Virus genome (UHGV): UHGV-0098481
Strand: one strand, 5' to 3'
From: a virus
DNA: 48,822 nucleotides
Under the pieces are notes generated by a model. That model had not been told where the DNA came from and made no database searches. It saw nothing but the letters and a program-made list of their open reading frames with translations. Positions 1 through 15,968 of this stretch are shown in pieces. The first letter of the stretch is position 1, and every line of letters begins with the position of its first letter. The position numbers and the translations under genes were made by a program.

Positions 1-612
<612 letters not shown>

Positions 613-987
613 TAGCTATGTGGGTGGCTCATCGCTGACGGCATGTATGCGTAACAGAGCATCTGTATCATCCGTTTGACGTTTTCGTCGGCGATCCTGC
701 CAGCTATTCGGACATCTTGTGAAACCCAAAGGCAGCGGCTGACGAAGCTTATCCGGTATCCTCTCGCAACAAAGGTACATGTACCATCTACTTTTTGGGC
801 GGCCATTGTCGACAGATTCTTAAGTAGAACAGCTAAGTTTAGATTTAGGAAAAAGTTGTTAAAATCAAGCAAATACTTATCATCATCACTTGATTTCGTA
901 AACGCAAAACTACGATACTATTAACAAATTCTTCTATGCATTCTTACCGAATGTTGGCGGTAGCGTGCTTAATCACTCGGATTTAGT

Positions 988-3900
988 ATGAAAAAAAATT
1001 CTTTAAATGTGATTTTGGATACTGTTTTCTCGGCGAAAAGCATCAATGGTGAGAAATCTCATTCTTTTATATCGTATAAATTAGTTAAAGCTGTAGAAAA
1101 TTTAAGTGGATATGACTTGGATCTTTTCCTCAATCGTGCGATAAACCATCCTAACTTCCCTAGCAATATGGATTTTTCCTTACGAACAGTTTTTACAATT
1201 GAACAATCTAACACTATTGAATTTAAAAATTTCATTTCAGAATTGGTGTGGTACAAGCATATTTTCATACGATATAAAAAACACCTTAATGATATATTAT
1301 CGGCAAAGGCAAGACTTGAGAAGTTAGTTCTTTTCGCAACAGGTAGTGAATGTATAAAATATTTAGATGAAATAGAAAGCTCTTATGGAGTTAGTTTTTG
1401 GAGCATTGATGCTCGTCTCTTAATAAATAAAGTTTTGCTTAACGAAAGCAATGGGTTATATGTTAAATCAATTCTATCTAAAACCCACTATAAACTTACA
1501 GAGTTTATGTTACAGCAGCTATTATTTAAGCATCAAGTACATAACTTTGATGATTTTTCAAAGAACCTTATAAAAATACTAGATGATATGCGCACCACTC
1601 AAGATAATGGGTATGCTAGAAATTTAGCTGATGGTATTTCATCCTTTTTAATACCTTTAGAGTTTGATAAAAATATAGATCTCAAAAATAGAACCTTAGC
1701 ACCATTTACCAACCTTCCTTTAATAGATCAATTTATCATATTCCAGAGAACTATAAGCGATTTACAACTTCATGGAAATGGTTTAAGAAATAGCGAGTTA
1801 AGCTTAATTGCAGAAATTAACAGCTTTATTAAAAATAACTATCTCAACAATATTTTAGATGGAAGAGAGCGTAATATAGAGAATATTGATGAACACTATA
1901 AAAGTGTTATTCGACGTTATACTATAGGTGATTATACTGGGTGTATTTCAGAAATAAATTCAGTTCGAACGCAGAAGACAATTTTGCCATTAATTGAAAT
2001 ATATGCAAAATCCCATGTGTATCTTGATAAGAAAATTTCAGACTCATGCATATTCAATAAATTAACAAACTGGCTTATAGCAATTATAAAATGCGACAGA
2101 CGCGCTGGAAAATACATCGATGAATTTGAACTTTTAGCATCTAAGATATATTTCAATTCAAATTCATCCTCTCTATTCTTCACATTATATAATTTAATAA
2201 GTGATAACCATAATAAATTAAACATATCTCGTATAAATCTAACCAAAAATGGTTCCTTTGTAACATCCCTTCATTTGAATATAACAATCAAGGAACTATG
2301 GACTGAACTTGGAATAAAAGAGAATGAGATACCAAAATATCGATTATTTAAATTCAAAGACCTAGCAAATCTATCCTTTGATGAAATCAAAAAACACTAC
2401 GAAGTATACAATGATAATGTAATAATTCGCTCTGAATATTTAAAAGATTATACTAACTTTTTATTAGAAAATGAAAAGTATGAATTATGCATCCAATTTA
2501 TAGCTGAAAACTGCATCGGCAACCCCGCAAATTATTACTACTTCCCAATCCGAAAAATAATTGATTTTGTAAAAGACAATATTTTTGACTATGCAAGCGT
2601 GGCCTTATCTATATTGATAGATATTTTTGTCAAAAGCACATCAAACACTTCAAATGAGCTTCTTCTCGAAAGTTATGAGAGTTTAGTAGATATTTCAAAT
2701 ATTAATAGGCCATCTACCCATTATTGCTCTAAGCAATTAACTCCATTAGAGCACTATTTCCTTAAGTTTATCTGTATACCTTCCGTGATGGATTCAGACC
2801 CTTCATTCACAGGCACGGACGACTTGAAGAAGGAAAGAATTGCTATTATAGATCTATTATTAAAAGAACACGATGATGCAGATTTATTGAAAGAGAAAGA
2901 CGAAATTATAGATGAAATATCATTCGAAGAAATAAAAACAAAATATGAGACAGGAAAAATATTTGTTGATATAGAAAATTTAAAACGGGCAAAGCTTGAA
3001 AGATACAGATATTATTTTGATGCACTTAAGGATTCGCTTATTCTCGGACTAGAACCACCTGAAGACTTTGCTTTAATTACAGACGATGGGAATATCACAG
3101 CCATTCCATCTGGCGATACAAACTCTATAATCCATGAACTTCTAAAAGAACTAATCTCCGATTTTGTTAAAAATGAAAATTACGGTCTTGATAAATATTT
3201 GAGTGCAGATATACGGCATGGTGTTTTTGAAAATCAACTCAGATCAAGTGCTGAAAAATCGCAATTAATAACTGATATGGATGGTACTGGACAGTATTCG
3301 AAAAGCAATTTAATTATTGAGACATATCCATTAATTAACCCTATTATAAATAACGAAATAGGGACAGCAATAGCTGATTTCTCTTATCACTTTGACATTG
3401 AATTGGCTAAAGCCAATTCCTGGTTCAATGTCAAGACAATGCTCATAAGTGAATCACAGCAAGGTATGATTGATTTCCTCATTTCTGTTGATATGTTTAA
3501 TTCATTTAAAGCAGCAGTTTCAAATCAAGCATCTTTTGAGAAGTTTTTTGACGCTTGTATTAACTTCATGTGGGAAAGAACGTTCAGATGTTTGAATGAT
3601 ATTAAAGAGCGATTGCATTACGAATTTAAGAGGAATATTTTAGATTTAATTGCCACTCTTAGGCATCAAATTGATATCTATAGAAGACGTAGTTCCATGA
3701 GAGAAATCCAGGAGAAAATTGACCTCTTGGCCGAAAGCATTAATAAAGAAATTGCAACAGTCTGCGATTGGTTAAATGTACTTGAGTATAACGAGGAGAA
3801 AATATATAAAATATCATCCGTGATGCAGGCATGTAGGAAAACTTTTTTTAATATACACCATTGTTCTGATGATGCTATCGTTTTTGATTCAATGTATCAT

Positions 3901-4263
3901 GATGATGAACCAAAATTATCTTATAAAGAAGCCAAGCCTCTAATCACATCAATAATAACAGCGTTAAACAATGCTATGGCCTATGGTAATAAAAAAATCT
4001 TTATCAGTATTAAGCCTGAAGAAAAGTCATGGAAAATAACCATCAGAAATTTGATAATTGAGACAAAGAACAGAACTACCAACCAAATTTTACAAGAGAT
4101 TGATGATAAAATAAAACGAGGGGATAATAGTCTAAATATAAAAGAAGGCGGAGCTGGAATATATAAAATATATGATTTATTATGTTCATTACCGCAAAGA
4201 TTTAATGTGAATCATTGCATCCAAAATAACGAATTCATTTTAAATATTGAGATAAAGAAATGA
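988..4263 (+). CDS. Large soluble sensor protein with C-terminal histidine-kinase-like ATPase motifs (DtcA-like)
   Basis: 1091-aa ORF, strongly AT-rich; C-terminal N-box-like ALNNAMAYGN and glycine-rich G-box-like EGGAGIYKIYD; no obvious TM segment; first gene of a translationally coupled three-gene operon. Confidence 0.6.
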   Translation: MKKNSLNVILDTVFSAKSINGEKSHSFISYKLVKAVENLSGYDLDLFLNRAINHPNFPSNMDFSLRTVFTIEQSNTIEFKNFISELVWYKHIFIRYKKHLNDILSAKARLEKLVLFATGSECIKYLDEIESSYGVSFWSIDARLLINKVLLNESNGLYVKSILSKTHYKLTEFMLQQLLFKHQVHNFDDFSKNLIKILDDMRTTQDNGYARNLADGISSFLIPLEFDKNIDLKNRTLAPFTNLPLIDQFIIFQRTISDLQLHGNGLRNSELSLIAEINSFIKNNYLNNILDGRERNIENIDEHYKSVIRRYTIGDYTGCISEINSVRTQKTILPLIEIYAKSHVYLDKKISDSCIFNKLTNWLIAIIKCDRRAGKYIDEFELLASKIYFNSNSSSLFFTLYNLISDNHNKLNISRINLTKNGSFVTSLHLNITIKELWTELGIKENEIPKYRLFKFKDLANLSFDEIKKHYEVYNDNVIIRSEYLKDYTNFLLENEKYELCIQFIAENCIGNPANYYYFPIRKIIDFVKDNIFDYASVALSILIDIFVKSTSNTSNELLLESYESLVDISNINRPSTHYCSKQLTPLEHYFLKFICIPSVMDSDPSFTGTDDLKKERIAIIDLLLKEHDDADLLKEKDEIIDEISFEEIKTKYETGKIFVDIENLKRAKLERYRYYFDALKDSLILGLEPPEDFALITDDGNITAIPSGDTNSIIHELLKELISDFVKNENYGLDKYLSADIRHGVFENQLRSSAEKSQLITDMDGTGQYSKSNLIIETYPLINPIINNEIGTAIADFSYHFDIELAKANSWFNVKTMLISESQQGMIDFLISVDMFNSFKAAVSNQASFEKFFDACINFMWERTFRCLNDIKERLHYEFKRNILDLIATLRHQIDIYRRRSSMREIQEKIDLLAESINKEIATVCDWLNVLEYNEEKIYKISSVMQACRKTFFNIHHCSDDAIVFDSMYHDDEPKLSYKEAKPLITSIITALNNAMAYGNKKIFISIKPEEKSWKITIRNLIIETKNRTTNQILQEIDDKIKRGDNSLNIKEGGAGIYKIYDLLCSLPQRFNVNHCIQNNEFILNIEIKK

Positions 4264-4709
4264 AAATTCTTCTTGTTGAGGATATTGAATATAAGCGTGA
4301 TAAGGTGATCGGTTTACTAGAGTCTATTTCTGCCGATGTATCAGTCGATGTAGCTAAATCTTATGTTTCGGCAGTAAATTCCGCAACCAGTAAAACTTAT
4401 GATCTTATAATATTAGATATGAGCCTTCCCACTTACGATAAGGGGCCTAATGAAAATGGAGGTCGCTTCAGAGTGTACGGAGGGAAAGATATTATTCGCA
4501 AGTTAATGAGAGGAAAAGAGCATCCAGTAGTTGTGGTTTTAACACAACATACAACTTTTGGTGAAATTGGTGAGCAAAAAAATACTGACACTCTATCACA
4601 AGAGTTGAATGCTTTAATGGGATCAAAATTTATAGGTATTGTAAAATATGACTCAACTAAACCTCAATGGAAAGATGAAATAAAAAAAGTCGTACAGGAT
4701 TTGTTATGA
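4260..4709 (+). CDS. Stand-alone receiver (REC/CheY-like) domain protein (DtcB-like)
   Basis: 149 aa; MKILLVEDIE acidic pocket and LIILDMSLP phospho-acceptor Asp motif; start overlaps upstream stop (ATGA). Confidence 0.75.
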   Translation: MKILLVEDIEYKRDKVIGLLESISADVSVDVAKSYVSAVNSATSKTYDLIILDMSLPTYDKGPNENGGRFRVYGGKDIIRKLMRGKEHPVVVVLTQHTTFGEIGEQKNTDTLSQELNALMGSKFIGIVKYDSTKPQWKDEIKKVVQDLL

Positions 4710-5869
4710 TTAAAATATTAATAGTTGATGACAATAAATCTAGAATTGAAAAGCTAAAATCTAGCTTAACTGAACTCATCACAAAAAACATGATAAGGAT
4801 TGATGAGAAATATACAAGTGACGCCGCAAAAATCGCGCTCAAGTTAAATCAATATGATTATTTAATTCTTGATGTCTTTTTACCTAAAAAAGATAACTAT
4901 AGCCCAGATGAAAGAAATGGATTAGGTCTTTTAAAACAAATAAATTCAGATTCTAAATTTTACTCTCCAAAAAAAATAGTTGGCATAACTGCATATCTGA
5001 ATGATATATCCAGATATGAATCCGAATTCAGAGAATATGCTTCAATTATATTCGAGGCTCGACGTAATGATACTGGATGGCTTGAATCACTCAAAAAAAT
5101 CATTGAAAAGGATGTTGAATCTCAAGTAAGTTATAATCTCAATGAAAAAGATAGTGTTTTAATAACAGTACACGGTATAAGAACCTACGCACCTTGGCAA
5201 AATACCATAGAAGAAAAAATAACCAATATATCAAATAAATTTAACTATATAAAATTCAATTATGGTTTTCTAAATATTCTTTGTTTTTTATTCCCTCCGA
5301 CTAGACATCTATTTGCAAGAAAAATAATCCAAGACATACGAATTACAGTGGAATCAAATAAGAATAAAAGAATTTATATTATTTGTCATAGTTTTGGTAC
5401 CTACCTTGTATATTGTGCCTTAAGTAAACTGACACATACGGATGCAAAAATTGAATGTTTAATTTTTTCTGGTAGCGTATTAAAACGTACTACCTCATTG
5501 AAAACATTAAAGCAACATTGTAATGCAATAATAAATGACTGTGCTGTAAGTGATTATATTTTATTACTATGTAAAATGTTAGTCATTGGCTTGGGCGATG
5601 CAGGCAGAAAAGGGTTTATTGAGCCAAATGATGGTGTTTTCATTAACCGCTATTTTAAAGGAGGACATTCAACTTACTTCGAAGATAAAGATTTCATAGA
5701 AGTGAACTGGCTTCCTTTAATTTTTGACAATAAAAATATCGCGTCACGAGATGAAAGAAAAAATCATATTTTTTCCGATGTCACCAATGCTTTGCAAAAT
5801 ATAATTGAATATTTAAAAATACCAATATGGTTATTTTTTTCTTTTTTATTGATAGCACTGGTATTATAA
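4706..5869 (+). CDS. Receiver domain fused to alpha/beta-hydrolase-like effector with C-terminal hydrophobic anchor (DtcC-like)
   Basis: 387 aa; N-terminal REC motifs (ILIVDDN, LILDVFLP); downstream VHGI and nucleophile-elbow-like ICHSFGT; C-terminal IPIWLFFSFLLIALVL; start overlaps upstream stop. Confidence 0.7.
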   Translation: MIKILIVDDNKSRIEKLKSSLTELITKNMIRIDEKYTSDAAKIALKLNQYDYLILDVFLPKKDNYSPDERNGLGLLKQINSDSKFYSPKKIVGITAYLNDISRYESEFREYASIIFEARRNDTGWLESLKKIIEKDVESQVSYNLNEKDSVLITVHGIRTYAPWQNTIEEKITNISNKFNYIKFNYGFLNILCFLFPPTRHLFARKIIQDIRITVESNKNKRIYIICHSFGTYLVYCALSKLTHTDAKIECLIFSGSVLKRTTSLKTLKQHCNAIINDCAVSDYILLLCKMLVIGLGDAGRKGFIEPNDGVFINRYFKGGHSTYFEDKDFIEVNWLPLIFDNKNIASRDERKNHIFSDVTNALQNIIEYLKIPIWLFFSFLLIALVL

Positions 5870-5879
5870 TATCACTGCA

Positions 5880-5912
5880 CATTAAAAATCATATTGGAGC
5901 TTCCCTCATAAA
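5880..5912. terminator. Inverted-repeat hairpin just after the effector gene stop, possible terminator for convergent genes
   Basis: tattggagctt...aagctccaata inverted repeat with A/T-rich flanks; no clean U-tract on the plus strand. Confidence 0.3.
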
Positions 5913-6348
5913 GCTCCAATATAAAACACCATCATTTCAATAGTACCTGCAGCTAATTAAAACTAGTCAACCGAAAACATTAATCACTTTAAACTTTAGT
6001 ATGCACTTATACTTTCTTAATAATAGAAAAACACTTACAAATAAATTAATCATGTCAATCTCCGTAACTACAACCTCGGAAAGTATGTAAACAGGAATCA
6101 TTACTGAAAAAAACACGATTTCAGCAGAATTCTAGAAATATCCTGTGCTGCTGCCGATACCAACTTTCGTATATACTACCCTTCACGTTCCTTCTCGTTT
6201 TTATAAAACTATTCATTTATAACTATCAATAGGCATCATAACCAATGTAAGTGTAAGTACTGGTGAACGAGTGTCAATGGAGTTAAAAGTATCACTTCAT
6301 CCTGCTAAATATAAGTTATCCTACGTTTTAATATACTAGAACTCAAAA

Positions 6349-7314
6349 TTAGAATGGTTTGTTAATATTAATAGATTTACCATTGATATCTTTTGACACC
6401 TTAAAAAAATCTATACCTTTTATCCACTGACATAACTGTTGTAGTGTTTCCATTGCCTGTTCTAACTCATTTTTTTCAATTCTAACGCCCCCATGATGGC
6501 TACAGGAATTTAATAATTCCTGAGCTAGAGTGATGTCATTCTTCAGCTTATTAGGCAGACCGAGAAAATTAATCACCCTCGACAAACTCCCAAGCATTAA
6601 CTTTTGATAGTCTTCTTCAAATTCCTTTTCAGCCCTAATATTTACTAACATCAAAACATACTCAAGATAACGCCGTGCTGTATTTCCCTTTTCTTGTAAC
6701 GCATCTCTATCATACTCTTTAATATCACTCAATTCCTGTAGTAGAAAATCAAACTTAGCTATTGCCAAGTTAAGATTGATGTTATGCATTAGCAATTCGG
6801 ATGCATGATTGCTAACAGGTACACGATTTGGTGGACGTATCATTATAGCCGTCGTGTAACAATTTATATTTGGTATCTGTATAAATTCCTCACCGGAACG
6901 CGTAACACGTTGAACTTCTACCATATAGTGGCCAAATTTATCAATCTCATATGACCGACAACGAGCAGAATATAATTTATTTAGCTTTTTCCTGTCTTGA
7001 TAATATGATTTTATTAATACAAAAAATGCTCTTTCGTGCTCAATAATTAAAATAGTCTCTATTGAAGCATGGTACAACCATCCGTTATTCCATGTTAATT
7101 CAAGCTGTCTATTTCCATCTTTAAAATCAATTTTAGTTATACGATCCCAACTTCCTCTATCAATAAAATCGACAATATTGCGCCCAAATCCTTGATAGTT
7201 ATTTTTAACAATGTGCAATAGTACTGCCTTTATTTTATCCCAATCATGAATTTCTTTTTCATATTCACCATTTAATATATTCGTTAAATCACTGTGAAAA
7301 TTTTCATATGTCAT
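6349..7314 (-). CDS. Hypothetical island cargo protein (321 aa), function unknown
   Basis: Long AT-rich ORF directly downstream of the island integrase; no motif I can assign. Confidence 0.6.
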   Translation of the reverse strand: MTYENFHSDLTNILNGEYEKEIHDWDKIKAVLLHIVKNNYQGFGRNIVDFIDRGSWDRITKIDFKDGNRQLELTWNNGWLYHASIETILIIEHERAFFVLIKSYYQDRKKLNKLYSARCRSYEIDKFGHYMVEVQRVTRSGEEFIQIPNINCYTTAIMIRPPNRVPVSNHASELLMHNINLNLAIAKFDFLLQELSDIKEYDRDALQEKGNTARRYLEYVLMLVNIRAEKEFEEDYQKLMLGSLSRVINFLGLPNKLKNDITLAQELLNSCSHHGGVRIEKNELEQAMETLQQLCQWIKGIDFFKVSKDINGKSININKPF

Positions 7315-7415
7315 AAGTATCTCTTTTTAGATAAAATTGGATTTCGACAAGTAGACGTTGATAACAACAAGACTGGTTAGATAATTTAATCATTGATGCA
7401 ACGTTTAGCGTTGAA

Positions 7416-8600
7416 TCAATTGACATCATTACCAATTCTTCCAATGCAATCAGCATACCACTGCATCATCTCCCTCCGCCCTTCCAGATACAAAGCATGG
7501 TTGTACGTCCCACGAATCGCATTCTTATCGACATGCGCAAGCTGGGTTTCAATCCATGCCGTATTGAACCCTTCCTCGTGCAAAATCGTACTCATCGTGT
7601 GACGGAAACCATGCCCCGTTACCTTCCCCGTATACCCAATCCGTTTGAATACCTGATTCATACTCGCTTCACTCATCGTCTTGCGGGGATCATTTCGCCC
7701 TGGGAATACCAGTGGATATTGCCCAGATATCACCTTGAGTTGTTGTACGATTTCCAGCGCTTGGGTAGATAGGGGGACAAGGTGAGGCCGTTTCATCTTC
7801 ATACGCTCTGCAGGTATTTCCCACACTGCTTTTTCAAGATCAAACTCACTCCAGAAAGCACCTCGTAGCTCGCCAGTACGAACTCCTGTAAGGATCAGCA
7901 GACGAGCGGCAAGAACAACTAACGGGCTTCCTGTGTAGCCTGCGAGAGCTTTAAAGAAGTCTGGTAACTCCTCAACAGTAAGGAAGGGATAATGCTTCGA
8001 TTCATGCCCTGACATTGCGCTGGTTAGATCCGCTGCAGGATTGTATTCCGCACGACCGGTAACGATGGCGTAACGAAAGACTTCACTGCAACGCTGGCGA
8101 ACCTTCTTGGCCTTCTCTGTCGCGCCACGGCTTTCCATTCGACGTAGCACATTCAGCAGAACCAAAGGCTTGATGTCATTCACCGGCAGTTGGCCAATAT
8201 AAGGGAAAATATCTTTATTGAAGGCTTCGATAATGTCGGAGGCATAACCTTCTGACCACCGGCTCACCTTCGTTCCGTGCCATTCAAGTGCCACAGCCTG
8301 AAACGTATTATTGAGCTGCACATCGCGAACCAACTTTTCTTCTTTCTTGGCAAACGATGGGTCGATACCTTCGGCCAGCTTTTTCTTGGCTTCATCACGC
8401 AGTGCCCTCGCTTGTGCAAGGGACACTGCCGGATAGACACCAAAAGCCATACGTTTCTCTTTTCCATTGAAGCGATATTTCATCCGCCAGTATCGAGAAC
8501 CAGAAGGAACAACTTCAAGATACAAGCCTGCACCATCTGCTAGCTTGTAGGCTTTCTCTCTGGGTTTAGCAGCATCTACCTGTCGAGCATTAAGCTTCAT
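7416..8600 (-). CDS. int: Tyrosine integrase, P4/CP4-type
   Basis: ORF 7416-8639, start taken at MKLNARQVDAAKP with AGGGAG upstream; C-terminal catalytic region with R...HGFRHT...Y pattern; immediately downstream of the tRNA 3' fragment on the same strand. Confidence 0.85.
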   Translation of the reverse strand: MKLNARQVDAAKPREKAYKLADGAGLYLEVVPSGSRYWRMKYRFNGKEKRMAFGVYPAVSLAQARALRDEAKKKLAEGIDPSFAKKEEKLVRDVQLNNTFQAVALEWHGTKVSRWSEGYASDIIEAFNKDIFPYIGQLPVNDIKPLVLLNVLRRMESRGATEKAKKVRQRCSEVFRYAIVTGRAEYNPAADLTSAMSGHESKHYPFLTVEELPDFFKALAGYTGSPLVVLAARLLILTGVRTGELRGAFWSEFDLEKAVWEIPAERMKMKRPHLVPLSTQALEIVQQLKVISGQYPLVFPGRNDPRKTMSEASMNQVFKRIGYTGKVTGHGFRHTMSTILHEEGFNTAWIETQLAHVDKNAIRGTYNHALYLEGRREMMQWYADCIGRIGNDVN

Positions 8601-8764
8601 TGGGGGCATCTCCCTGGACCGAACACAGAATGCCCCCACTTATGCCCCCAACTGCGACTTGATTTCGGTTGAGTCCAGTTGATAACAGGAGATAAGATAC
8701 GGGCCAGAAACCGCAGTATACGGGCTTTTAGTTGATTTCGGTAGACTTGGGAAGAGTTTGAAAT

Positions 8765-8810
8765 GGTGCCGATAATAGGAGTCGAACCTACGACCTTCGC
8801 ATTACGAATC
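8765..8810 (-). repeat. 46-nt 3' fragment of tRNA-Thr (anticodon loop CGT, T-arm GGTTCGA, CCA end); attachment-site core
   Basis: Reverse complement reads ATTCGTAATGCGAAGGTCGTAGGTTCGACTCCTATTATCGGCACCA; sequence 5' of this (8811 onward) does not continue a tRNA, so it is a partial att copy and not a gene. Confidence 0.8.
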
Positions 8811-9094
8811 TGTAGCACCAATCATAACTATCTGTTTTAGCAAGCATTAACCGCATTCACTAAGCTATAGTTGATGGCACAAACAGAAAGCTGATGCATG
8901 ATGTTGTCATGTGTATGTCACAAATACGGCACAACGATCTTCAAACATGTAGCCACACATCCACAGAAGAGCACAACGCCTTGCAATCAAGTGCAAAGCT
9001 TTGTGTGCATCAGTTTTGTCTCATAGGTAATGAGGCTTTAACTGCGATGCAGTAATACATACTAAAATTTACTTAAAATTCATAAATACACCAG

Positions 9095-9124
9095 ATAAAA
9101 ACAATCCCGCATTTTTTATGCGGG
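9095..9124 (-). terminator. Rho-independent terminator downstream of tailspike
   Basis: cccgcat / atgcggg stem with T-rich tract following on the minus strand. Confidence 0.6.
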
Positions 9125-9144
9125 ATATACTGCATTTATTGCAA

Positions 9145-11850
9145 CTACATTGCCATTAATATAAACATAGCCAATTCGTCATAACGAATTCCGTAGCGTC
9201 CTCCTGCTTTTTTTACAAGAATCATATCTCCTGTTTTATATTGAGAATAAATTTTCTCACCTGTATCAGGATCTGTGCTCTCTTCAGTTATCACCTCTTC
9301 ATCCCATACGTCAGGCCATTCATCGTAACACCAAAAAGCATATTTCTCAGGGTTTAAACCATGCTTTCTAAGAATATCCCCTACGGTTTGAGCGCCAACG
9401 CCAAAATGATACCTGGACGACTCAATTCCTTTGTGATTAATTGAGTCATTAAATTTAAATTTATAGATGACTGACTTTATTTCAATAGCGGCATCACGCT
9501 CTGCATTAAGAATATCATATCTTGTTTTAAGAGTTTCATCTGATGTATTGATTGACCCGGTTCCTGCATAAATAACAGAGCATCTGTTTGATGGCTGTCC
9601 AATAGCTTTAACATTATCATCAACAGGAGCTATTTTATTAGCATCTGCCAACCACCAGTCTGTTCCATCAGCGTGACCGATTCTTACTCTTATCCCACTT
9701 CTAATATTTAAACTTCCAGTATTACTCTGTAAATTACAATCTCCTGACGTTGGTCCAAGCAGTACAGTTTTACCAACACCACATACTACTCTGGCATTTC
9801 CTTTTTGTGATACGAGTCTTGACTCACCTCCTGACTGCTCAGGAAGAGATTTATGGTCTATAAATGCATCGCGGGGGTTAAATACACCGTCTCCAGAATT
9901 ATATCTTCCTCCTGTATAGTTGTTAAATACAGGACCCCAGTCAACGCCATTGCCTTCAGAGCACCCGACCATTCTAAGCACTCGAGTATTCCCTGCTGCA
10001 TATGGTAATGAGCTTGTTGATTGCCGGGAAGCTATCATACGTGCTCCATAACCAATAGCATTACCACCATTTATAGTTACATATGCTTGCTGGCTTTCGA
10101 AATATGTACTGTAAAAGTTCATATTTCCACAGTCATGTAGATGAATAAGAACATCATCCCATCCCTGAATGGTTCCTGCATGTACCTGTACACCGCGAAC
10201 TGGTTCCCCTGAAACCTCCATACACTCTGATGGTCGGCTGAATGGTTGAGACAGGTATTGCGATGTGGCAAGCAGATGTGTGTGGTGATACAGGCTGGTA
10301 ATGTAGCAATCGAAAAATTGCGTTCCCGCCATACCAAAGTTATCTATGTCATTTCGCCGTATAGTAGAACCTACTGTTGCCTCAGAAGCGTTAGACACTC
10401 CAGTAAATACTAACTTATCACCGGATACGGATAATCCTGAATAAGTGAAATTCCTGCCTCCAGATCTTAAAACCCCGGACGTTTCGAAGGTGTGGCTTGC
10501 TGACCATGGGATTTCGATAGTGCTGGACGTTACCGCTGTAATTCGGAATACATCATGGGCGCGGATCGAAACACCCTTGAATCCCTGGAATCTACAGTGA
10601 TAATAGTTTTCATCCTCGCCCTGAGCAGCCAGCGTGTCAGATACAGGAATGTTCGTTTTTAAAAGTGCCGTCTTGCGCCAGTATCCAACCACCTGCAAAT
10701 TGCGGTATTCATTGCCAAAAGACGCACGTGACCAAATACCTACATCCCACTCATCGCCAAGACCGGTATTTGCAATGTCTTTATAACCATCCAGACCATT
10801 GAAATATGGAACAATACGAAAGTTCTCAAGGCGAACACATCCTGTCTCAGGCATCAATATTGCGGCAGAGAATGGTTTAAGCGTGGCTCTTGTAGTCCCA
10901 TTAGCATCACCGTTAGTAAAATCCAATAAATCATATGATGACGCAGGTGCCGTTGTTGTATACGGGTCTTCGGAAGATGGATTAGAAACCACACCACCAC
11001 TAACATCCATATTAGAAACACAATCTACAGTATATTTTTTATTTCCTACCCCGTACATCAGGAATGTGGTCCCTGTGGTAATATCAGGAGCAAATGTTGC
11101 AGTATATCCTGAGACCCATTTGCCCACACCAAGACAAATTATCCCACCACCAGAAACAGGTGTTAACGTATCCGTTATTACATACGCATTATCAGTACCA
11201 TAAATAACCTTTCCTGTGTTAAGGGCAGCTTGCCACGCGGCCCAGTCTATTGACTGAGATAATGAGTCAACAAAAGGATATAAGGATTTTGCTTCAGAAA
11301 TTGAAGAAAACCACTCAGATAATGGATGATATTTCCCATCCCCAATTGCTCCAAATTGTTTTACATTTAAGAAAAGAGCATTGTTTTCATGCTGAGTTAT
11401 AGTTACAGCCCCGGTAAATGGCTGCCTTACCCCAATTAATGCATCACCTTTTGAATCATCATTAATGTATGCTCCTGATTGAGATAACTGCTCTTTGAAG
11501 TCTGGGCCAAACTGATCTGGATCGTATTTTAATACATTTGGAAAATAGAACTGCTTCGCACCATACGCATCATAAACAGCCATAGAATGGCCTTGCACAG
11601 TTACGAATTTGGCAATCTGTCCGTTATATACCGGATAACCAGCAGCGTTAATGATGATTGGTTGAGAAACAGGAACGTGAGAACCGTCTTCGTTCTCTAC
11701 ATAAACCTGAATCCGGTTTTCTGGATTTACCGGGTCAGCGTCAATTTTACCGATATAAATTTTTCCATTGGCAACCGCTTTAAAAGAACGCGCCATAGTG
11801 AAGAGTTGCGAAGGCATACTCACTACAACATTGGCTGTAATGTCTGTCAT
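9145..11850 (-). CDS. Tailspike protein: P22-like N-terminal head-binding domain, divergent receptor-binding body, C-terminal chaperone-like domain
   Basis: N-terminus [11 protein letters not shown]...[12 protein letters not shown]...VQGHSMA...LKYDPDQ closely matches the P22 gp9 head-binding domain; remainder unlike P22; C-terminal ...[11 protein letters not shown]... resembles auto-cleaving intramolecular chaperone domains. Confidence 0.85.
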
Positions 11851-11918
11851 TTAATTTGCTCCAGATACAAGAAATCGCCGCAGCATTGCCACAGTGATGC
11901 ATTATTAATCAAATAAAG

Positions 11919-11933
11919 AGACCGCTGTGGTCT
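11919..11933. promoter_or_regulatory. Operator-like inverted repeat AGACC-N5-GGTCT between divergent mnt and tailspike starts
   Basis: Dyad in the 146-bp intergenic region; form is similar to the P22 Mnt operator as remembered. Confidence 0.35.
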
Positions 11934-11996
11934 TATTGAGGATGCAACCAGCAGATAATAAGATGCCGATCCACTCACAAAAGCGAGGCATCAAGA

Positions 11997-12248
11997 ATGG
12001 GAAGAGATGACCCGCAATTTAATCTGCGGCTACCTTACGAATTAAAGGAAAAACTAAAACAGCGAGCCAAATCCAATGGCCGCTATCTTAATTCAGAATT
12101 AGTTCAGATAGTGACTGATGCTGTATCAAAGCCATCCAAAATTTCAGGCTATCGAGACGATGCGGAACGCATCGCTGATGAGCAGTCTGAACTTGTTAAG
12201 AAGATGGTGTTTGATACGCTGAAGGATTTGTACAAAAAACCCACCTGA
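11997..12248 (+). CDS. mnt: Mnt repressor (Arc/MetJ-type ribbon-helix-helix)
   Basis: 83 aa, near-identical to P22 Mnt as remembered (…RLPYELKEKLKQRAKSNGR…DAERIADEQSELVKKMVFDTLKDLYKK). Confidence 0.85.
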   Translation: MGRDDPQFNLRLPYELKEKLKQRAKSNGRYLNSELVQIVTDAVSKPSKISGYRDDAERIADEQSELVKKMVFDTLKDLYKKPT

Positions 12249-12262
12249 CGGTGGGTTTTATT
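12240..12262. terminator. Bidirectional rho-independent terminator between convergent mnt and the putative toxin gene
   Basis: cccacc-tgac-ggtggg hairpin flanked by A-run upstream and T-run downstream. Confidence 0.65.
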
Positions 12263-12680
12263 AGTGCTTGTATAGGTTGAACTCTCTATCAAGCCATATA
12301 ACAAAAAATGTCGATCCAAGACGATAACCAACCATGGCTTTCAAATCATCAAATCTAAAAGCCAAGAAATGATCTACGTCTTCCGTTATATGACTGGGGA
12401 TACCTGCTTTAATTGCACCCCTTGCAATCTTCTCAAATCCAAGCTTATGCCTACCTTGCTGCTTAATATCTGCCCATGTTAGTTGACTTAATCTGTATAA
12501 TTTATCAGCTAAGCCAGCTTTCTCATCTTTTTGGCATTTCGTTATGCAGTGAGAGCTTTGGATGTAACAGAATGAAAATTTCGGTTTCTTTTGATCTGAA
12601 TTCCCCCCTGACTGCGGCCCTAACTTTAACTTACCTGTAGATTCAGCAGGGGGGATAATCCTTTTAGATTTTCTTGCCAT
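12261..12680 (-). CDS. Hypothetical protein, candidate toxin partner of the Panacea-domain protein
   Basis: ~139 aa from MARKSKRIIPP...; starts 4 nt after the upstream ORF stop; basic N-terminus; no family assigned. Confidence 0.5.
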   Translation of the reverse strand: MARKSKRIIPPAESTGKLKLGPQSGGNSDQKKPKFSFCYIQSSHCITKCQKDEKAGLADKLYRLSQLTWADIKQQGRHKLGFEKIARGAIKAGIPSHITEDVDHFLAFRFDDLKAMVGYRLGSTFFVIWLDREFNLYKH

Positions 12681-12684
12681 CTCG

Positions 12685-13134
12685 TTAGTTAATCCGAGTT
12701 GCAAAGTACTCTGCCATCTCCTTAGAACTAATTTCAGAACCACCAACACCCTCAATATAGTTTGATCTCCATGGTGACTCTTCGTGTGTCATGTTCCTCA
12801 GTTTCCAGGCAGAAAATTGCCCAAAAACATCCCAGACTTCTTCTAATAGCTCTAACTGTTCTTCGCTGAATTTTTCAGCATCAAAAGACTCTGGAGAAGG
12901 GATAGCACCATTACCATATTGTTTATAACGGTGATAAAGCTCAGGGACAACAGGGCCATGCATCCAAGCTTCCATCTTATTCTGAAAAAGAGGCTCGCCA
13001 AGCAACGCCAATGAAAAACCCTGAGCATAGTAAACAAGCTTTTGTAATTTTAAATTAGAGATTGCGTCACCGCTATCCTCGTCACACCGCGACAGGAAGT
13101 AGTCGGCGACATCAAAACAAGTAAGCATGAACAC
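12685..13134 (-). CDS. DUF4065/Panacea-domain protein (SocA-like antitoxin family)
   Basis: 149 aa; LKLQKLVYYAQGFSLALLGEPLF...EAWMHGPVVPELYHRYKQYG pattern typical of the phage-associated Panacea domain. Confidence 0.7.
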   Translation of the reverse strand: MFMLTCFDVADYFLSRCDEDSGDAISNLKLQKLVYYAQGFSLALLGEPLFQNKMEAWMHGPVVPELYHRYKQYGNGAIPSPESFDAEKFSEEQLELLEEVWDVFGQFSAWKLRNMTHEESPWRSNYIEGVGGSEISSKEMAEYFATRIN

Positions 13135-13502
13135 ACCTCCATCTTGATAGCCACAGCTAAGTATCCAACTATGTCAAATGTCATTTAATACTATAACAAA
13201 GCTATCAGCAATCCTTCTGAGGCTAACTTACAACCACTTTAGCGACATGTTTAAACCATTACGTTTCACATTTACTGCATTTTCGCCGAAGTTACCTATA
13301 AGGTAATGTCACATTTCCTGCAAGTTTCATGCAATGTTGAAAAGTGAGCTATTCACTTTTCTATGACACCAAACACCAAAAATAGCACTTTTTGCTAAAT
13401 CATTCGTCCAAGTTGTGGATGGTTTGTCGTTGACACGTTTTCACACACCACTCCACCAATAAAGTATCATCTGGTATCCTGCTCAAAACTAAGGAGGTTG
13501 GT

Positions 13503-13832
13503 GTGCTTGAATGGTTTCTGTTGGCTGCATTAGTCGTTTCTGGTTTGGTGTATGAGTATCGAATGCACTCTCTAACAAAAAAAATAGGAATTCTAGAAAA
13601 CGAATATTGTGCTCTCAAATCCTCACTGGAACGTGAGCAAGGGGACTTAAAAATCTCTCTGTCTAGCATTGAGCGTTCTATAGAGAGCTTAGAGGATAAG
13701 GTTGATCGTATAAAGAATGAGGATATTCATGATATTAAGGACGACATATCCTTCTTAAAATCTTGGTTGAAAAATGTTGGGAAAATTGCCACATCAACAC
13801 GAGATAAGCTCAATCCATCCATGGATGACTAA
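13503..13832 (+). CDS. Small membrane-anchored coiled-coil protein (moron in the sieA-equivalent slot)
   Basis: GTG start 5 nt after AAGGAGG; N-terminal TM helix (WFLLAALVVSGLVY) then heptad-rich region; convergent with gp16. Confidence 0.6.
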   Translation: MLEWFLLAALVVSGLVYEYRMHSLTKKIGILENEYCALKSSLEREQGDLKISLSSIERSIESLEDKVDRIKNEDIHDIKDDISFLKSWLKNVGKIATSTRDKLNPSMDD

Positions 13833-15968
13833 TTACTCCTGTGCCATTCCGCTTAGTGATGCCACAATTCCAGCCCTTGCTAAACGCTGGAACTCTTCGT
13901 TTCCTAGTGCCTCGCGTATTGCTTTTACGGCGGCCTTATTTGCCATAAATCTGCGTTCCGCCGCCGCTAATGCACCATCACTTGCCCCAACCTTAACGGC
14001 CTTTGTTGCCTCTTGAACAGCCTTTTCAATAGCGTAACGACCACTTCTAGTTGCGGATAATTTCGCTATCGCTCCTTTTGCCATTGCATCAATTGCTCCA
14101 CCTGCAGCGCCACCCGCTATTGCTCCAATAACGCCTCCTCCAGAGAACCCTGCGATAGTGCCAGTAGTTCTAAAAGCGCCAGACAATGCGCTCTCTAAAA
14201 CTGGATGAAGGCCATTCTCAAGAGTGCTAATGGCTGGCATAGATCGCCCTGTCTGTTCAACATATCGAAGTGGCTTTGTTGCTGCTCGTGCAAGTTCTCC
14301 GTATGAACTTGTAATCCTGCCAAGTTCTGGAGAATATCGACTAATTGCCTTCACGTTTTGTGGGGTAAGAATAGTCGCGATATGCTTAATTCCAGCCTCT
14401 TCAGACTTACCTCCGCGTACCCCTTGCGACATTGCATCTTGTAATATTGATGCAATTGCTGGCGCGCGTTCCGACTCAGGTAGGGCGCTTATTATTTTAT
14501 GGAACTGACCTGTTCCACTTTTTGCTGAACCCTGTAACGCCTTAGATCCATTAGTTACCAACTGATCAGTTGCAAGGTCTCTACCAAACGCTGCTTCAGC
14601 CTGTTCTTGTGCTGTAAATCTTGCCTTTGACAGATCATTAGCTTTTTGCCAGTCATCAAGAAAACCACCATTTTGAGCCATTATGCGCATATCTTCCGTT
14701 GCTGCATCACGAAGCTCAGCCATGCGCCTTGCCGTATTTGCCTCACCAGACCTTATATACTTCTGCTCTGCGTCAGCAAGTTTACTTCGCCATGCCTTCA
14801 TGGCATCAAACGTGATTCCTTTTTTACCAGTTTTAGCATAAGCAGATGCGAATTGTTTCATCTCAGGAGTTAGCGGCATGCCAGCCAAAATATCACCCTG
14901 AATTGTAGCGTTCAGGTTTGACATTCTGGCCTTTGCGTCAGGCATCGTGGAGCGAACGCTATCCCATGCGGCCTTTTCTGAATTTTTCATTTTATCAATA
15001 CTTGCCAAAACCCTTTGTTTTATGGCTGCACTTTTTTCTGATGCAGTTCCTGCTTCAGCCCCAAACTCATCCAATGCTGAGTTAAATTTCGACTCTATTT
15101 CACTGAATGCTTTGGTGTGTGCATCCTGTGTAATTCCGGGCTTTGACGCCAGAATCCCCTCCGCCTGAGCAAGACCACGACTACCTGATCTCATGCCAGG
15201 AGTTAATGCGTTGATATCTATTCCAGCAGTATCTGCTGCTTTTGCTATTTCTTCTGACACATTAGCTGACTGTCTGGCGATAATCTCTCTTCCTGTACCA
15301 GACTTTGCCATTTTCGAAACATCAGCAGCGGAATTTATTGCCCCGCCACCAAGAACTTGAGGTGATTTAGAGGTTAAGATCCTTCCAGCCCCAGAAAGTA
15401 TCCCCTGAGCACCAATATTGATACCACCGTTAATGGCAGCATTTTGTGCAAAGTCGCCCTCCTGATTTGCAGCATCAGCAAGAGAACCTGCAATCATGTT
15501 TCCTGCGGAACCGATATCTCCAGCGAGCTTTGCTGGCGCTCCAGCAGCTTTTGCCGCTGTGCCAATTGGCAGGAGATACCCACCAATTGTTTCACCGGCT
15601 TGCGCGTAAGGGTCTGTCGGTCGATCGACAGGACGATAGACATCATCCAATACTTTTGGCCCACCAAGCCCCTGACTGATTGCATTAATCAGACTTGCGC
15701 CACCCTGCAATACGTCAAATGGTATGTTTACCAGACCACGACCAGCCTGTTCTGCAATTTGCCCTGCACTTTGACCACCAGTGAGCCAATCGCCAGCTTG
15801 TTGCATCAATGATGGTTCTTCCCGTGTTGGTGCATTATTGGCCTGATTAACTGTTTGTTGCTGAACAGCCTGACCAGCAAAATACTCATCAATGGCGGTG
15901 CCAATATCTTCGGTGCTCGTACCATCAGGAAAGGTAAATGTCTTACCGTTTGCAGTTACTTTCATCAT
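13833..15968 (-). CDS. Ejection protein gp16-like
   Basis: Position and size in P22-type gene order after gp20; Ala/Gly-rich. Confidence 0.75.

Follow-up and report, generated by a model that had tools for sequence, protein, structure and literature searches.

A probable Detocs-hydrolase operon with a predicted tail-anchored effector on a small thrW island in Escherichia coli

Three coupled genes resemble the Detocs-hydrolase system

The UHGV virus genome UHGV-0098481, a stretch of 48,822 nucleotides analysed here at full length (the window), carries three plus-strand genes at positions 988-5869 that, judged by analogy with published operons, very probably constitute a Detocs-hydrolase defence system. 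We designate these genes dtcA, dtcB and dtcC, and consider it likely that the complete reading holds, namely that of a Detocs operon of the "hydrolase + TM" (transmembrane) subtype, carried by a small island that integrates at the tRNA gene thrW and acting by the mechanism proposed below. Detocs was named by Rousset et al. in 2023 (bioRxiv 10.1101/2023.01.24.525353), who reported that about 80% of the operons have a PNP effector, the others having nucleases or transmembrane effectors. An operon of E. cloacae JD6301 is entered there as "Detocs-hydrolase" (Table S1; also Fig. S8C), with its DtcC annotated as "Response regulator - α/β hydrolase - TM", and it protects E. coli from phages. About 35 "Hydrolase + TM" operons are listed in Table S5 of the same study, E. 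coli WCE035, O76 and G177 among them. A hydrolase in place of PNP is thus not new, having been published with experimental support in 2023. The first-pass annotation, made from the letters of the window, had seen here a different and possibly membrane-targeting output; the hydrolase effector is real, its novelty does not stand, and membrane targeting is carried forward below as a conditional proposal.

Listing of open reading frames (ORFs) gave 988-4263 (1091 residues), 4260-4709 (149 residues) and 4706-5869 (387 residues), which are contiguous and co-directional. The dtcA/dtcB junction reads AAATGAAA and the dtcB/dtcC junction TTATGATT, with stop and start codons overlapping by 4 bp in ATGA at 4260-4263 and 4706-4709, exactly as first annotated. 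This arrangement conforms to the published MacSyFinder rule for Detocs gene order, by which at most one foreign gene lies between components. GC content is 0.27-0.34 over approximately 1000-7250 versus 0.49-0.55 at 1-500 and 7500-8750, in agreement with the earlier description of the operon as more AT-rich than its flanks. The peptide motifs picked out at that stage (ALNNAMAYGN, EGGAGIYKIYD, ILIVDDN, LILDVFLP, VHGI, ICHSFGT and SIIHELLKEL) were all located in the translations. The operon layout is far beyond chance, because the same three genes recur in every complete homologous locus examined, from Vibrio, Pseudomonas, Serratia, Aeromonas, Pantoea, Leclercia, Paraburkholderia and Arcobacteraceae. 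The features of the operon are as follows.

988-4263, plus strand: dtcA, predicted cytoplasmic sensor with an atypical histidine kinase, 1091 residues, assigned by the PADLOC-DB model PDC-M60A (4.5e-55)
3184-3228, plus strand: putative H-box of DtcA, residues 733-747 (GLDKYLSADIRHGVF), with the H744 codon at 3217-3219
3955-3984, plus strand: N-box-like motif of DtcA, residues 990-999 (ITALNNAMAY), with N995 invariant; aligns to the N-box of VanS and HK853
4144-4167, plus strand: G2-box-like ATP-lid motif of DtcA, residues 1053-1060 (EGGAGIYK); aligns to TGGAGL of VanS
4260-4709, plus strand: dtcB, stand-alone receiver of 149 residues and proposed phosphate "buffer", with the D53 codon at 4416-4418
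4706-5140, plus strand: receiver domain of DtcC, residues 1-145, with the codon of the phospho-acceptor D56 at 4871-4873
5153-5725, plus strand: α/β-hydrolase domain of DtcC, residues 150-340, with oxyanion motif H156-G157 and elbow H228-S229-F-G231
5390-5392, 5552-5554 and 5666-5668, plus strand: codons of the predicted triad S229, D283 and H321, assigned by conservation
5798-5866, plus strand: predicted C-terminal tail anchor of DtcC, residues 365-387 (IIEYLKIPIWLFFSFLLIALVL), at the end of a long helix (355-386)

All three proteins, scanned with PADLOC as the first-pass annotation had proposed, match models of the PDC-M60 set: DtcA matches PDC-M60A over residues 491-1061, DtcB matches PDC-M60B (2e-35), and DtcC matches PDC-M60C (1e-22) through its receiver part only, the alignment ending at residue 149. 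PDC-M60 is an unnamed candidate in the PADLOC release used, and published Detocs proteins were scanned as controls. The PNP-type DtcC of V. alginolyticus matches PDC-M60C over its full length (1.4e-64) and its DtcB matches PDC-M60B, while a PNP-type DtcA matches PDC-M60A at 5e-15. The validated hydrolase-type DtcC of E. cloacae matches PDC-M60C through residues 2-148 only, as does DtcC of the window. Because published Detocs proteins match these models in the control scans, the PDC-M60 models are Detocs models.

Direct comparison with E. cloacae JD6301 points the same way. The two DtcC proteins are 32% identical over 385 residues (E = 9e-56), aligning end to end through the HG motif, the HSFGT elbow, the GGHS motif and the hydrophobic tail, and the two DtcB proteins are likewise 32% identical (1e-19). 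Together with the model matches and the control scans, this homology bears out the earlier equation of a sensor kinase, a buffer receiver and a receiver-effector with Detocs. Neither PADLOC nor Pfam gave a PNP match in DtcC, whose fold is that of an α/β-hydrolase, and the operon accordingly falls outside the canonical PNP subtype; full-length DtcC homology, the α/β-hydrolase fold and the conserved anchor place it in the "Hydrolase + TM" subtype. The features of a classical regulatory two-component system were likewise missing, with no DNA-binding domain in DtcB or DtcC and no Pfam HisKA or HATPase_c match in DtcA. By analogy with homologs that are 27-32% identical, the operon would act against phages, would need its phospho-acceptor His and Asp residues, and would use DtcB as a buffer; the published basis for the residues and the buffer is the V. 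alginolyticus system, in which DtcA H645A and DtcC D58A each abolish defence and mutation of the DtcB Asp causes toxicity that depends on the effector (bioRxiv 10.1101/2023.01.24.525353).

DtcC joins a receiver to an α/β-hydrolase with a hydrophobic tail

An AlphaFold model of DtcC built on an alignment of 40 sequences (mean predicted local distance difference test score, pLDDT, of 89.5) comprises a receiver (residues 1-145), an α/β-hydrolase core (150-340) and a 32-residue terminal helix (355-386), so that an N-terminal receiver with a phospho-acceptor Asp is joined to an effector. In the 40-sequence alignment, D56 and T95 of the receiver are invariant and D8 and D9 are at least 90% conserved. 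Invariant positions of the hydrolase are H156-G157-I-R-T, W164-Q165, H228-S229-x-G231, N277, C279, D283, G300, N314-R315 and H321. The fold, the nucleophile elbow and the order of Ser, Asp and His by sequence position are those of the α/β-hydrolase superfamily, and the catalytic triad is likely S229/D283/H321, in the canonical order of nucleophile, acid and base.

The structures closest to the hydrolase domain are YdeN, XCC1541, MenH and a carboxylesterase, and no solved close sequence relative was found. Pfam matches to this domain all lay below threshold and were spread over many α/β-hydrolase families, the S33 aminopeptidase family included; Lipase_3, DUF676 and LIDHydrolase were the best of these weak matches. 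No PADLOC effector model matches the domain, and several members of the DtcC family are labelled lipase family proteins by their sources.

The C-terminus of DtcC has a mean Kyte-Doolittle hydropathy of 2.22 over the 19 residues from residue 369, and 83 of 118 family members score at least 1.6 in their last 45 residues. Since nothing follows this C-terminal hydrophobic helix, it should serve as a tail anchor, with both domains remaining on the cytoplasmic side. The model, the fold search, the conserved elbow and the hydropathy profile together substantiate the first-pass description of the third gene as a receiver fused to a hydrolase with a hydrophobic C-terminus. The checks that it had suggested had a mixed outcome: structure prediction with a fold search recovered the α/β-hydrolase fold, and among the family searches for DtcB and DtcC, Response_reg exceeded its cut-off in DtcB while the α/β-hydrolase families did not do so in DtcC.

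DtcB is a stand-alone receiver

The Pfam Response_reg match of DtcB, at 3.1e-8, exceeds the curated cut-off. In 20 homologs drawn from both subtypes, D8, K12, D53 and P57 never vary, and conservation of T95 is 90% or higher. With the PDC-M60B match and the invariant D53, the description of the second gene as a bare receiver domain is well founded.

DtcA carries a conserved histidine and kinase-like motifs

The N-terminal ~700 residues of DtcA are all-helical, the kinase motifs lying in the C-terminal part; this helical region is called tetratricopeptide repeats (TPRs) in the literature, and DtcA homologs carry PF27260 "Y4jQ". The Kyte-Doolittle scan gave a best 19-residue window of 1.5, so DtcA has no transmembrane segment, as first annotated, and no window of transmembrane strength was found in DtcB.

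DtcA homologs were collected from the neighbourhoods of DtcC homologs, from a GTDB scan with a pattern specific to the hydrolase clade, and from a PNP-type operon on a plasmid, found by tblastn with published DtcC. Word-indexed searches with a single DtcA sequence or with an 8-sequence profile were swamped by low-complexity words and returned two near-identical proteins. In 20 aligned C-terminal regions, PNP type included, G733, L738, R743, H744, Y780, W928, N995, G1054, G1057 and K1060 are invariant (window numbering).

The conserved histidine, H744, lies within GLDKYLSADIRHG (YLSADIRHG). Over the 400 N-terminal residues of V. alginolyticus DtcA that are available, the PNP-type DtcA from the K. 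pasteurii plasmid shares 44% identity with it, at a numbering offset of ~1. The only His of this plasmid-borne DtcA at residues 560-720 is H646, in YLGRRIRHGTF, for which the BLASTP partner in the window is YLSADIRHGVF. Because H744 aligns to H646 of a protein whose numbering tracks that of V. alginolyticus DtcA, H744 is by this mapping the predicted counterpart of the validated H645. The motif SIIHELLKEL, earlier offered as a candidate H-box, was rejected: its His is not conserved, the closest homolog (63% identity) having Val there.

A profile of the 20 DtcA C-termini was searched against the PDB, and the top significant matches were the histidine kinases VanS (0.005) and HK853 (0.009-0.016), followed by weaker matches to AdeS, PhoR, WalK, SrrB and QseC, with E-values for histidine kinases ranging from 0.005 to 0.07. 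In these alignments ALxNAxxYG corresponds to the N-box and EGGsGl to the G2 box. A first full-length DtcA profile had yielded only ApoE-like helical noise, making the deeper C-terminal profile necessary, and the region between H744 and the G2 box (3217-4167) gives apolipoprotein-E-like long-helix matches. Pfam HATPase_c was matched weakly (E ~0.03) by C-terminal fragments of 2 of 10 DtcA proteins. We rate an ATP-binding domain in DtcA as probable.

Proposed mechanism and alternative explanations

We propose that the helical-repeat sensor region of DtcA would detect a phage cue in the cytoplasm, upon which DtcA would autophosphorylate on H744 and the phosphate would be passed on to D56 of the DtcC receiver. 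Phosphorylation of D56 would switch on the serine hydrolase (S229/D283/H321), which the tail anchor would keep at the cytoplasmic face of the inner membrane. The hydrolase would most likely de-acylate membrane phospholipids or another membrane-proximal ester, and this de-acylation would collapse the membrane and abort infection. In uninfected cells, D53 of DtcB would be a sink for stray phosphate, keeping the effector silent. Family membership, the folds of the DtcB and DtcC domains, the conservation of catalytic and phospho-acceptor residues, the tail anchor and the mobility of the island are results of this analysis; a lipid substrate, membrane damage and the cytoplasmic topology are what we infer. 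Membrane phospholipid is the most economical guess because of the anchor and the weak lipase/esterase family matches, and we advance it as a leading candidate to which we give slightly less than an even chance.

Several observations weigh against the reading of the operon as a Detocs-hydrolase system that works in this way. The operon is only ~32% identical to the validated one of E. cloacae, and the substrate of the hydrolase was identified neither in this analysis nor in the literature found. The structural neighbours of the hydrolase are generic small esterases, not proven phospholipases. DtcA gave no match in Pfam or NCBIfam, the Pfam HisKA/HATPase_c check proposed for it at first pass included; the best PDB E-value for its kinase domain, 0.005, is weak support, and structure prediction from a 3-sequence alignment was unusable (pLDDT 37.6). 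DtcA has no DxGxG G1 box, an IxIxN strand (N1021, ~90% conserved) standing in its place, and H744 lies 251 residues ahead of the N-box Asn N995. In canonical kinases the phospho-His precedes the N-box by roughly 110 residues. Given the missing G1 box and this long spacing, DtcA may phosphorylate through a non-canonical, HPt-like arrangement. The C-terminal histidine-kinase-like ATPase motifs of the first-pass annotation are present and align to the N-box of VanS and HK853 and to the G2 box of VanS, and it is the G1 box and a Pfam match that are wanting. Finally, weak sigma-70-like matches occur upstream of dtcA at 838-865 and 856-883, but such promoter-like matches in 596-987 are no commoner than in shuffled sequences; for that reason the operon promoter was not located and none is assigned.

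If the Detocs relay is accepted, the output could still differ from hydrolysis of a lipid. In one alternative, the C-terminal transmembrane helix is itself the killer, with phosphorylation leading to oligomerisation and a pore and the hydrolase having a regulatory or scaffold role. Table S5 of Rousset et al. does contain a Detocs with an effector given only as "1TM", such effectors are placed by these authors under "transmembrane-spanning domains", and the hydrophobic helix is conserved and joined to the hydrolase even in relatives that have no receiver domain. However, 40 diverged family members all retain the oxyanion HG, the HSxG elbow, D283 and H321, which argues for selection on catalysis, and a lone tail-anchor helix with no extracytoplasmic residues would be a poor pore former. 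We regard this alternative as improbable. Somewhat less so, if unlikely in our estimate, is a non-lipid substrate near the membrane, such as a protein (as target of a peptidase or deacylase), an acyl-carrier or thioester metabolite or an envelope precursor, with the anchor providing localisation only. The closest structures are of unknown or non-lipid function, the sub-threshold Pfam matches extend as far as the S33 aminopeptidases, and no close relative of the hydrolase has been solved, all of which would fit such a substrate; tail-anchoring, in contrast, brings the active site to the lipid surface, Lipase_3, DUF676 and LIDHydrolase head the weak matches, and members of the family carry lipase annotations.

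The remaining alternative dispenses with defence altogether and takes the genes for an ordinary two-component system that governs a membrane hydrolase for envelope or lipid remodelling. RefSeq labels, which read only "response regulator" and "alpha/beta hydrolase", would accommodate this. It is nevertheless very hard to sustain, since phage protection is established for a homologous operon with the same architecture, no DNA-binding output domain is present, and DtcA has neither a transmembrane nor a periplasmic sensor. The operon is moreover found in 0.3% of E. coli genomes, is AT-rich, and lies on an integrase island that has moved between genera, and its relatives adjoin restriction and other defence-type genes.

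Comparison with named systems

The operon of E. cloacae JD6301 shares with that of the window the order dtcA, dtcB, dtcC; a DtcC of 386 versus 387 residues made up of a receiver, an α/β-hydrolase with the HSFGT elbow and GGHS, and a C-terminal transmembrane helix; a DtcB of equal size, alignable throughout; and the pattern of PADLOC matches. The two differ in that DtcB and DtcC have diverged to ~32% identity and the N-termini of DtcA barely align, with no significant BLAST match, a comparison made on ~400 residues of the published DtcA. The window operon is nearer to Vibrio, Pantoea and Klebsiella clades (36-63% identity) than to that of E. cloacae.

The canonical Detocs of V. alginolyticus UCD-32C has, like the window, a three-gene phosphorelay and a DtcC with an N-terminal receiver. 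PNP-type and window operons have the DtcB family in common, and their DtcA proteins are homologous in the C-terminal half, where the R-H of the H-box, N995, G1054, G1057 and K1060 are invariant in both, whereas the N-terminal sensor regions are not alignable. The canonical effector is a Cap17-like PNP ATP nucleosidase, while that of the window is a predicted tail-anchored serine hydrolase; because the effector is a hydrolase and not a PNP, the output cannot be cleavage of ATP or dATP. Related in concept is CapV of CBASS, a patatin-like phospholipase and lipid-degrading abortive-infection effector: as proposed for DtcC, an enzyme activated by an immune signal is turned against the membrane of the cell itself. 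CapV differs from DtcC in being a patatin rather than a minimal α/β-hydrolase, and in responding to cyclic nucleotide binding rather than to Asp phosphorylation of a fused receiver.

In E. coli, a population study placed Detocs on a yjcB-ssb island and also mentioned a second, divergent Detocs elsewhere in one isolate (ISME J 2024, PMC11728103), which may be of the thrW type. The yjcB-adjacent operons that we compared (L004 and L005) are, like that of the window, of the hydrolase type, with a DtcA of 1102, a DtcB of 152 and a DtcC of 390 residues. They adjoin yjcB and a CSS-EAL gene, whereas the window operon lies at thrW, and identity between the two types is 23% for DtcA, 35% for DtcB and 34% for DtcC. 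No later mechanistic work on DtcC or Detocs-hydrolase was found in the literature searched.

The operon lies on an 8.2-kb island at thrW

The operon is part of an 8.2-kb island (596-8809) that comprises an upstream region, the Detocs genes, a 321-residue ORF, an integrase and a fragment of thrW. Its features outside the operon are listed here.

596-987, plus strand: upstream region between the island's left edge and the first codon of dtcA, in which the promoter presumably lies
5889-5924, strand not assigned: inverted repeat with a perfect 15-bp stem, 20 nt past the dtcC stop, with a T-run on the minus strand only
6349-7314, minus strand: AT-rich ORF of 321 residues, island cargo
7416-8600, minus strand: tyrosine integrase of the P4/CP4 type (NF007246, 1.9e-89), annotated in SMS-3-5 as a tyrosine-type recombinase/integrase
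8764-8809, minus strand: 3' part of tRNA-Thr (thrW), 46 nt, the attachment site of the island, located by comparison with SMS-3-5

Positions 1-8809 are 100% identical to E. coli SMS-3-5, the identity breaking inside thrW at 8809, and ARAGORN detected no intact tRNA in the whole of the window. From 8810 a P22/CUS-3-like prophage runs to ~33000 and beyond; 71% of the interval 8700-33000 aligns to CUS-3 at 94% identity. With this P22-like prophage inserted in thrW beside the island, two mobile elements share one tRNA site in tandem, and the first-pass picture of an integrase-bearing island next to a prophage is confirmed. Among 5,426 complete E. coli genomes, 17 carry the operon, in each case chromosomally.

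At the same proA-side site, K. quasipneumoniae (GCA_004311525.1) has a locus that matches the island over 596-8809 with 97% identity. Such identity in two genera indicates that the island moved between them recently, the Klebsiella integrase decaying afterwards. In the K. quasipneumoniae copy the integrase is split into three fragments.

Pfam, PADLOC and NCBIfam returned nothing for the 321-residue ORF, and PHROGs just a marginal match to phrog_622 (unknown function; E 0.002). The ORF is present with the island in Klebsiella, where it is called as 282-284 residues. It was rejected as a fourth component of the system: the Pantoea locus (63% identity) lacks it, as do all other Detocs-hydrolase loci. 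The inverted repeat may be a T-less terminator of the operon or the terminator of this convergent ORF, 425 nt away; its role for the plus-strand operon is uncertain because the T-run is on the minus strand only.

Other Detocs-hydrolase loci adjoin defence-type genes. The 63%-identical operon of Pantoea sits on another integrase island together with an Mrr-type nuclease. The neighbour is a PLD-nuclease and helicase protein (1168 residues; 11564-15070) in locus L006, an AAA_13 ATPase (748 residues; 8905-11151) in locus L007, and an Mrr_cat/NA-iREase1 restriction nuclease (13219-14385) in locus L027. With PLD-helicase, AAA_13 and Mrr-type genes adjoining them, these loci have gene neighbourhoods consistent with placement in defence islands. 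At the left boundary of the window's own island, the 5' part of an IS3-family transposase gene of the programmed-frameshift type (1-560, minus strand) abuts it, and beyond IS3 in SMS-3-5 there are CP4-6-like remnants, namely an antirestriction gene, a JAB domain protein and YeeU/CbtA.

The hydrolase and helix occur outside Detocs

Searched alone, the hydrolase and hydrophobic-helix module (5144-5866, DtcC residues 147-387) matched 2,594 clusters at 50% identity, 1,404 of them at E <= 1e-10. Among the 150 best matches, about half have no receiver, the module standing at the N-terminus of proteins of 250-1316 residues (P0126-P0262). These receiver-less relatives keep a hydrophobic helix of transmembrane strength at ~230-245, after the hydrolase. 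What follows the module is a WD40 β-propeller in 5 of 10 proteins scanned, one of which also has Sel1 repeats, or otherwise an unannotated region. The genomic neighbourhood of one receiver-less module gene was uninformative.

Discussion

The Detocs family, its hydrolase + TM subtype, the protection that this subtype gives against phages and the occurrence of the subtype in E. coli have been in the literature since 2023, and standard defence-finding models flag all three genes, so that the operon of the window adds little as a discovery. Of the leads from this analysis, the set of receiver-less hydrolase-helix proteins alone extends past the literature found on Detocs-hydrolase. It is a speculative idea, to which we assign a low probability, that the hydrolase with its tail or transmembrane helix is a widespread, portable, membrane-anchored immune effector module. 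If true, hydrolase-TM-WD40 proteins would be an unrecognised sensor-effector defence family whose killing mechanism is common with that of Detocs-hydrolase.

The practical value of the window is that it offers a member of the subtype native to E. coli, which retains an intact upstream region and sits on a compact island of 8.2 kb. For experiments it provides a residue map consisting of H744 of DtcA, D53 of DtcB, and D56, S229/D283/H321 and the anchor 365-387 of DtcC. Operon and map could serve to establish what the hydrolase effector cleaves and how the phage is stopped.

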